This document shows positions 39,001 through 39,804 of a stretch of DNA of 39,804 nucleotides, piece by piece (within the stretch, counting starts at the first letter, position 1; each line of letters starts with the position of its first letter). The stretch is from a virus (lineage: Duplodnaviria; Heunggongvirae; Uroviricota; Caudoviricetes): the IMG/VR virus record IMGVR_UViG_2734482775_000002, positions 1 through 39,804 of that record, one strand, 5' to 3'. Position numbers: made by a program.

Positions 39001-39804
39001 TGGCCACACATCGGAGAAGACAACAAAAATGTATCTTGATGAGAGAGAAAAAACGTACTTACTGCTCTGATTTTAACGTAAATGGATTGTTAAATGTATT
39101 TTGGTTGTGATATAACCAAAAAAGACCGGAATACAGAAATTCGAGTAAATTTCGGGGAATTTCGGGGAGACGTTTGCAACTGATTGATTTTAAATACAAT
39201 TAAAAAAAGACCGAATACGATTCCTGTATTCGGTCCAGGGAAATGGCTCTTGGGAGAGAGCCGTGCGCTAAAAGTTGGCATTAATGCAGGCTTAGTTGCC
39301 TTGCCCTTTAAGAATAGATGACGACGCCAGGTTTTCCAGTTTGCGTGCAAAATGGTCAATAAAAAGCGTGGTGGTCATCAGCTGAAATGTTAAAAACCGC
39401 CCGTTCTGGTGAAAGAACTGAGGCGGTTTTTTTATTGGAAATCAAAAGGCTATTTTAGGTAATTAACAGAGTTTTTCAGCTCGTTCTATAAACGGTGCCA
39501 GACTCATTTTTTCGCCGGGATTGTTAGGATCATCAATCTGAATCACCGAAATGGGTTGGGCTTTAGTCTTCCCACTGGCAACTTCCTTTTGTGCGATATC
39601 GTTTAAAAGATACTGCACGAGGGTACTTGGGTTAATGACATACAAAGCATTACCCGGTCTGCAAGTCAGCATCACCTCTTCGCGATTAAACGCCCATTTG
39701 TCTTTACCCACTTCAAAACGACTGACGGTAATCACCTGCGGTGCAGCCAGCGCCGCTGCAGAACTGGTGAGTAACAGAAACGTCAGAATACTTTTTTTCA
39801 TCAT

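Follow-up and report, generated by a model that had tools for sequence, protein, structure and literature searches.

Genes and RNAs at the int end of the prophage

The right-hand end of the window (the whole 39,804-nucleotide stretch analyzed, IMG/VR record IMGVR_UViG_2734482775_000002, a member of the Caudoviricetes) contains an excisionase and an integrase gene, the overlapping sRNA genes sdsR and ryeA and, in the chromosomal flank, yebY. The excisionase gene (xis, positions 37741 to 38028, plus strand) encodes 95 amino acids with a Pfam Exc match (PF07825, 52 bits), is annotated as an excisionase gene in the homologous RefSeq locus and overlaps the start of int. The intact int gene (37994 to 39070, plus strand) encodes a lambda-family tyrosine integrase of 358 amino acids with arm-DNA-binding (Arm-DNA-bind_1, PF09003), central (Phage_int_M, PF22022), and catalytic (Phage_integrase, PF00589) domains. 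Int can be aligned from end to end with lambda Int structures (E = 8e-72), the catalytic R, K, H-x-x-R, H, and Y residues being aligned, and shares ~41% identity with HK022 Int, ~39% with HK97-type Int, and 98.6% with the Int of phage PP818812.1. The int stop codon lies 131 bp from the SdsR 3' end, close to the ~130 bp estimated in the initial annotation. An Int-based search of genome contigs gave two close loci, one of them in a Shigella assembly whose sdsR sequence contains obvious indel errors. A partial Int with 74% identity is present in Salmonella phage ZC-S1_prp, apparently a Gifsy-like remnant record.

SdsR is a conserved RpoS-dependent Hfq sRNA, and RyeA is its antisense antagonist. 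The sdsR (ryeB) gene occupies positions 39202 to 39304 on the minus strand; ~77 nt at its 5' end are host DNA, and its 3' end, from the crossover on, is phage donated. The initial annotation had recognized SdsR here, and its identity is borne out by an Rfam scan of the whole window, in which SdsR_RyeB (RF00111) matches at 118.1 bits, far above the gathering score of 38, over all 100 model positions (39301 to 39202, minus strand). The terminator hairpin, also pointed out earlier, consists of GACCGAATAC and GTATTCGGTC (39209 to 39218 and 39226 to 39235), with a stem of 10 to 11 bp, a 7-nt loop, and a T7 run; fold prediction (-15.8 kcal/mol, z = -3.9), a terminator scan, and a repeat search agree on this structure. 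The adjoining gene (39463 to 39804, minus strand, 113 amino acids), previously described as yebY-like, has a Pfam DUF2511 match of 148 bits and is annotated as yebY in all matching genomes. The position of sdsR downstream of yebY, on the same strand and ending in a Rho-independent terminator, matches the synteny rule described for SdsR (PMC3333887). The region upstream of sdsR is ~99% identical to that of other E. coli strains, and the RpoS-dependent sdsR promoter is presumably intact in the window. On the opposite strand, SraC_RyeA (RF00101; K-12 b4432) matches at 179.1 bits against a gathering score of 37 (39198 to 39342), and the host-derived body of ryeA (sraC; 39228 to 39435, plus strand) lacks the native promoter and the first ~55 nt.

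The Rfam scan of the window also returned the RalA antitoxin RNA (212 bits), overlapping the ralR toxin open reading frame (ORF), a sok RNA adjoining a hok-type locus, isrK with the C4 antisense RNA and its a1/b1 targets, and DicF. These regulatory RNA regions of the prophage are located at 37250 to 37636, 24638 to 24787, 22267 to 22465, and 31927 to 31978.

Core of the attachment site and crossover interval

A 905-bp query spanning the junction matches all 5426 complete E. coli genomes and, in all but 228 of them, matches only from 39201 rightwards, which places the host boundary at 39201. The limit on the other side is given by the attP of PP818812.1 (47.5 kb), in which tail-fibre genes, distal arm, core, P' arm, and int follow one another in this order. 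This attP matches the window from the int stop codon to 39227, with four single-base differences over ~150 bp, and then diverges; IMG/VR locus L067 provides a second, independent attP of the same type. The common core of attP and attB (TAAAAAAAGACCGAATACGATTCCTGT, 39201 to 39227), with its left limit set by the 5426 genomes and the K-12 sequence and its right limit by the PP818812.1 attP, thus covers the last 26 nt of SdsR.

The four configurations of the site were compared in an alignment of K-12 attB, the pphA-side junctions of lysogens STEC308 and CE0021a, the PP818812.1 attP, and the window. Left and right of the core, attB reads ...AACAGATAAAAAGAGACCGAACACGATTCCTGT / ATTCGGTCCAGGG and attP reads ...ATACAATTAAAAAAAGACCGAATACGATTCCTGT / TTTCGTCAACAAAC; the pphA-side junctions combine the left part of attB with TTTCGTCAACAAAC, and the window combines the left part of attP with ATTCGGTCCAGGG. 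The junctions of STEC308 and CE0021a are therefore host-left and phage-right, and the window is phage-left and host-right, i.e., the junctions are reciprocal, a relationship established in related lysogens in which both prophage ends are known. With host homology starting at 39201, attP homology stopping at 39227, and reciprocal junctions, the proposal in the initial annotation that the 3' end of an sRNA gene serves as the phage attachment site is upheld. The same annotation expected a second core copy at the other end of the prophage. The 39.8-kb window, which starts inside tail genes, contains no second core copy, and the reciprocal pphA-side junctions are found in the related lysogens.

The position of strand exchange can be narrowed further by polymorphism within the core. 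The native E. coli sdsR allele and the window differ at 39207 and 39216, and both positions are of the phage type in the window, on the int side, and of the host type at the pphA-side junction. This segregation, together with the divergence of attP and the window from 39228 onwards, confines strand exchange to 39217 to 39227. The interval is centred on the terminator loop, with the perfect inverted repeat GACCGAATAC / GTATTCGGTC on either side, and two inverted half-sites around a 7-bp overlap is the core geometry of tyrosine recombinases. Judged from the symmetry of the site, Int would most probably exchange strands across the loop GATTCCT (39219 to 39225), and the two arms of the terminator stem (39209 to 39218 and 39226 to 39235) would be its inverted core-type binding sites.

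The 228 E. coli genomes with this int junction, ~4% of the complete genomes, also carry the integrase and include many STEC strains of serogroups O26, O111, O103, and O45. The K-12-type sequence between pphA and sdsR is uninterrupted in 5191 complete E. coli genomes and split in 235. Another type of interruption is seen in strain 17MR471 (NZ_CP051158.1), where ISApl1 (IS30-like) lies between pphA and sdsR. In K-12, the sequence just to the left of the core (TTTTAACAGATAAAAAGAG; positions 2990 to 3010 of the extracted K-12 locus) still resembles the phage arm (TTTTAAATACAATTAAAAAAAG; window 39184 to 39208), and the flanking genes there are pphA, which we take to resemble the lambda phosphatase gene, and yebW (annotated as YdfD/YebW family). 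The K-12 flank may be an old remnant of a phage with this type of attachment site.

Integrases other than those of the lambda-like lineages are also found at this core. At four IMG/VR loci (L071, L099, L057, and L094), integrases unrelated to that of the window (21 to 25% identity or no BLAST hit) lie beside the same SdsR core, and the adjacent arms carry other tandem repeats (TGACTACA twice and GGCGGCA twice). Unrelated integrases and different arm repeats at one core indicate that several integrase families have converged on the sdsR terminator.

Candidate arm-type sites, IHF match, and half-site copy

Between int and the core, the P' arm carries three tandem candidate arm-type sites (39137 to 39168, plus strand), which would be bound by the N-terminal domain of Int. 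The window has exactly two copies of AATTTCGGGGA, at 39148 to 39158 and 39158 to 39168, and AAATTCGAGTA (39137 to 39147) is a third, degenerate copy, so the two tandem repeats that had been put forward as arm-type candidates are in fact three. A scan of IMG/VR with a 21-nt core sequence yielded 119 loci, 94 of them SdsR-side junctions and 25 with other right flanks, representing distal phage arms. Lambda-like integrases beside the SdsR core in this set are 51 to 99% identical to the window Int, and the arm of every lambda-like lineage has three tandem repeats with a spacing of 10 to 11 bp at a constant distance from the core. The sequence of the repeat is uniform within a phage and specific to the lineage (TTCGGGG plus TTCGAG, TTCGGAC, TTCGTG, or TTGGTGG).

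The window's own distal arm lies outside the sequence, and the distal arm is described here from other phages and prophages. In diverse phages, the same kind of motif recurs on the distal arm at fixed distances of +119, +130, and +141 from the core. The distal arm of PP818812.1 carries TTTTTCGAG, TTTTTAGAG, AATTTCGGGAC, and TATTTCAGACC in a block that hardly varies across three sequences, and in prophage IMGVR_UViG_2911203379_000002, which was sampled at both ends, the GTGG-type motif is present on both arms. Constant position, covariation with the integrase, and presence on both arms are as arm-type sites predict, and this comparison across integrase lineages strongly supports the tandem repeats as candidate arm-type Int sites. 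A further string on the distal arm, ATTTCCGG (position 384 of the attP sequence, beyond the motifs at +118 to +150), was considered as an arm-type match and rejected, as it is not conserved in CE0021a. A copy of the arm-type motif with one mismatch (AAATTCGGGGA) at 38286 to 38296, inside the int coding sequence, is probably due to chance. Many otherwise divergent distal arms share a GATCAAAC(A/G)CTTG block ~+95 to +110 from the core, before the distal arm-type repeats, and this block may be a site for an accessory factor (IHF-like or Xis).

The P' arm would further hold a bend site of the IHF type. The consensus WATCAANNNNTTR has a single perfect match in the 39.8-kb window, with 1.76 expected anywhere in it, and this match (AATCAATCAGTTG, 39177 to 39189, minus strand) falls between the arm repeats and the core, at the position of lambda H'. 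The consensus is still matched in PP818812.1, where the base at an N position differs; in other integrase lineages it occurs in either orientation or not at all. The element is thus a putative IHF site, identified by consensus.

Distal to the three repeats and 85 bp from the core lies AAAAAAGACCGGAATACAG (39118 to 39136, plus strand), a direct near-copy of the left core half (an A-run followed by GACCG(G)AATAC). The pattern AAAAGACCG(N0-1)AATAC has two occurrences in the window, the near-copy and the core, and none in 100 shuffled sequences. The initial annotation was correct that a near-copy of the left half of the terminator exists here, and the element is conserved: all 18 representative P' arms, in which Int is 51 to 99% identical to that of the window, have an AGACnGnATAT block right beyond the three repeats, frequently after an A-run. 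In several lineages it is an almost exact direct copy of the left core half, e.g., AAAAAGACCGAATACGA at locus L039. Arms in which the int stop codon lies 82 bp from the core and arms in which it lies 136 bp away both keep the block, and coding constraint therefore cannot explain all of its conservation. The further suggestion that the near-copy is itself the core did not hold, since it lies within phage DNA in two independent attPs and the core is the SdsR terminator. Nor does it appear to act as a terminator, its minus-strand fold (-2.6 kcal/mol, z = 0.44) providing no stable hairpin. The near-copy could be an additional functional element of the attachment site, either a core-type Int-binding site or a regulatory element, but we regard this idea, which derives from sequence conservation, as tentative and rather doubtful.

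Model of the attachment site and alternative readings

In the model that we consider very probable, a prophage of the lambda type occupies the Rho-independent terminator of sdsR, an sRNA gene of E. coli. The segment from 39071 to 39240 would be the int-proximal junction between prophage and chromosome, attL in lambda nomenclature (B-O-P'), and the phage attP would bring its own 27-bp copy of the sdsR end. A prophage merely situated beside sdsR, with its true attachment site elsewhere (in pphA, in yebY, or at the near-copy at 39118 to 39136) and an incidental likeness to the terminator, would be conceivable because the left core half is significantly repeated in the near-copy, which could be mistaken for the core. 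Host homology starting at 39201 in 5426 genomes, attP homology ending at 39227, and the placement of the near-copy inside phage DNA in both independent attPs nevertheless speak against such a location, and the four-way alignment, in which the reciprocal junctions share exactly the core segment, refutes it; we consider it extremely improbable.

It is less improbable, but still unlikely, that the junction is a fossil, i.e., the scar of a defective or rearranged prophage that can no longer excise. The absence of the other prophage end from the window would fit such a scar, as would the situation in strain 2013C-3342, where the prophage end that accompanies the int junction is at potB, indicating rearrangement, and recT is a pseudogene. 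Furthermore, a distal arm like that of PP818812.1 occurs in only 63 genomes, compared with 228 that have the int junction. In the window, however, int, xis, recE, and recT are intact ORFs, and the arm sites, the IHF match, and the core differ at only four positions from the PP818812.1 attP, while other strains have intact prophages of ~42 to 50 kb bounded by both junctions. Strain 2013C-3342, the best match to the junction, was also considered as a guide to the other end of the prophage and set aside for its rearrangement: the prophage at its yebY/sdsR junction (NZ_CP027766.1, 1750000 to 1836858; loci L001 and L002) abuts potB and type III secretion system (T3SS) effector genes instead of pphA, which suggests a chromosomal rearrangement between prophages.

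Comparison with known systems

Integration of a phage into the sdsR/ryeB terminator is of a kind already published for Salmonella, of which the prophage described here is an E. coli member; our literature search found no paper on an E. coli case. According to the summary in PMC7380047 of the work of Balbontin et al. (2008, J Bacteriol 190:4075; also cited in PMC3333887 and PMC3603311), the attachment site of the Salmonella DT104 phage PhiW104 lies in the terminal 23 bp of ryeB, internal to ryeA, and lysogeny alters the 5' part of ryeA, with ryeA transcription decreased and ryeB transcription increased. Froehlich et al. described the sdsR locus as having repeatedly received foreign DNA and as still being a phage attachment site, with a variable gene 3' of sdsR and a constant yebY (PMC3333887), and Bobay et al. 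listed ryeB among the sRNA genes targeted by phages (PMC3603311). The two systems share an attachment site at the end of ryeB and internal to ryeA (the last ~23 bp in PhiW104; the last 26 nt in the core of the window), the replacement of the 5' part of ryeA in lysogens, and a hot spot downstream of yebY with a variable 3' flank; the likeness of the cores is to be read through the review's summary. They differ in host, Salmonella versus E. coli, and the mosaic genome of the window phage has a Rac-like early region. In addition, the effects on expression are measured values for PhiW104, whereas those given below for the window are predictions. What the present analysis adds is the crossover interval, the three-site arm architecture backed by covariation, and the conserved half-site copy. 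Its value lies in a clean example from E. coli, a map of the attachment site at the level of single bases, and comparative support for arm-type sites.

The architecture resembles that of lambda, in which core, H', P'1 to P'3, and the end of int follow one another. As in lambda and HK022, a heterobivalent tyrosine integrase (39 to 41% identical and alignable over its full length) is encoded next to xis, three arm-type sites (candidates in the window) stand in tandem on the int-proximal arm ~60 to 80 bp from the core centre, an IHF consensus lies between these sites and the core, and further arm-type sites are found on the distal arm. Lambda targets the gal-bio intergenic attB, whereas the window phage targets an sRNA terminator and, unlike lambda, has predicted core half-sites that form a perfect 10-bp terminator stem. 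The window also differs in that a conserved extra copy of the left half-site lies on the far side of the arm-type sites as seen from the core, for which we know of no counterpart in lambda.

Parallels with integration at the 3' ends of tRNA and tmRNA genes (Campbell; Williams 2002, cited in PMC3603311) are also evident. In both cases, the phage brings the 3' end of a gene for a structured RNA and so rebuilds this gene, and a stem-loop with a 7-nt loop forms a symmetric core. The stem-loop is the anticodon or T arm in tRNA and tmRNA genes but a transcription terminator in the window, where the locus is bidirectional and the antisense gene ryeA loses its promoter.

The closest relative of the attachment module is that of PP818812.1 (vB_Apl-pPE4), which has a nearly identical Int, P' arm, and core and a similar early region but different head and tail genes. 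Only ~14 kb of the window is shared, consisting of the early region, recE/recT, and int with the attachment site, and the head, tail, and baseplate genes differ. Sharing of this segment among phages with other structural genes indicates that the attachment module travels on mosaic genomes. The named host of PP818812.1 is Actinobacillus pleuropneumoniae, and the core of its attP (45966 to 46432) matches the E. coli sdsR terminator. With an attP core of the E. coli sdsR type and E. coli Rac-like genes, the stated host looks doubtful.

Predicted consequences for SdsR, RyeA, and pphA

Integration would leave a complete SdsR whose last nucleotides are phage derived and carry two substitutions relative to the native E. 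coli allele. The SdsR 3' end reads ...GUGUUCGGUCUCUUUUU in K-12 and in the closest uninterrupted strain and ...GUAUUCGGUCUUUUUUU in the window; the U-tract of the phage-type end is uninterrupted and is all that differs from the K-12 type. Greater stability of the phage-type terminator was considered and rejected, as both types have the same predicted energy of -15.8 kcal/mol.

In the MG1655 annotation, ryeA extends from 1923066 to 1923337 (plus strand) and sdsR from 1923104 to 1923207 (minus strand), coordinates that were projected onto the window through sequence identity. In K-12, the annotated start of ryeA is 38 nt past the 3' end of sdsR, in a segment that the window replaces by unrelated phage DNA. 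The native RyeA promoter is consequently gone from the junction, in agreement with the earlier suggestion that phage DNA may supply or alter it. Phage DNA would thus replace the native promoter and the first ~55 nt of RyeA, which must sit at the other end of the prophage, and the RyeA body at 39228 to 39435 would be transcribable only from phage DNA. A candidate weak sigma-70-like promoter (TTTGCA-16-TACAAT, 39173 to 39200, plus strand) points into this body.

RyeA function might still be retained if this promoter in the phage arm, or read-through from int, provided a full antisense to SdsR and left the balance between the two RNAs little changed. The promoter-like match is oriented into the RyeA body and conserved in PP818812.1, and no terminator is predicted for the int transcript before the core. 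The match is only 9/12, however, at a frequency no higher than in shuffled sequences; the scan as a whole found no more promoter-like matches in the region than in shuffles and, as it also misses the known K-12 ryeA promoter, is uninformative. In the Salmonella PhiW104 lysogen, moreover, ryeA transcription fell and ryeB transcription rose, as summarized in PMC7380047. We consider retention of RyeA function rather unlikely, and the loss of native RyeA transcription proposed here is the reading that we prefer.

Integration would also place the whole prophage between pphA and the sdsR promoter. Read-through transcription starting at this promoter provides pphA expression in K-12, and ryeA transcription interferes with that expression (PMC6610125); separation of the two genes in lysogens would be predicted to affect it. 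SdsR has been reported to target ompD in Salmonella (PMC3333887) and, in E. coli, tolC, yhcB, and mutS (PMC6610125). Stress-phase regulation in lysogens could change with a prophage that leaves SdsR complete, removes the RyeA promoter, and detaches pphA. If the near-copy of the left core half were indeed functional, then this element, together with an SdsR 3' end contributed by the phage and the loss of the RyeA promoter to phage DNA, would make the phage family a dedicated rewirer of the SdsR/RyeA/pphA circuit, and the rewired circuit would concern ~4% of E. coli genomes.
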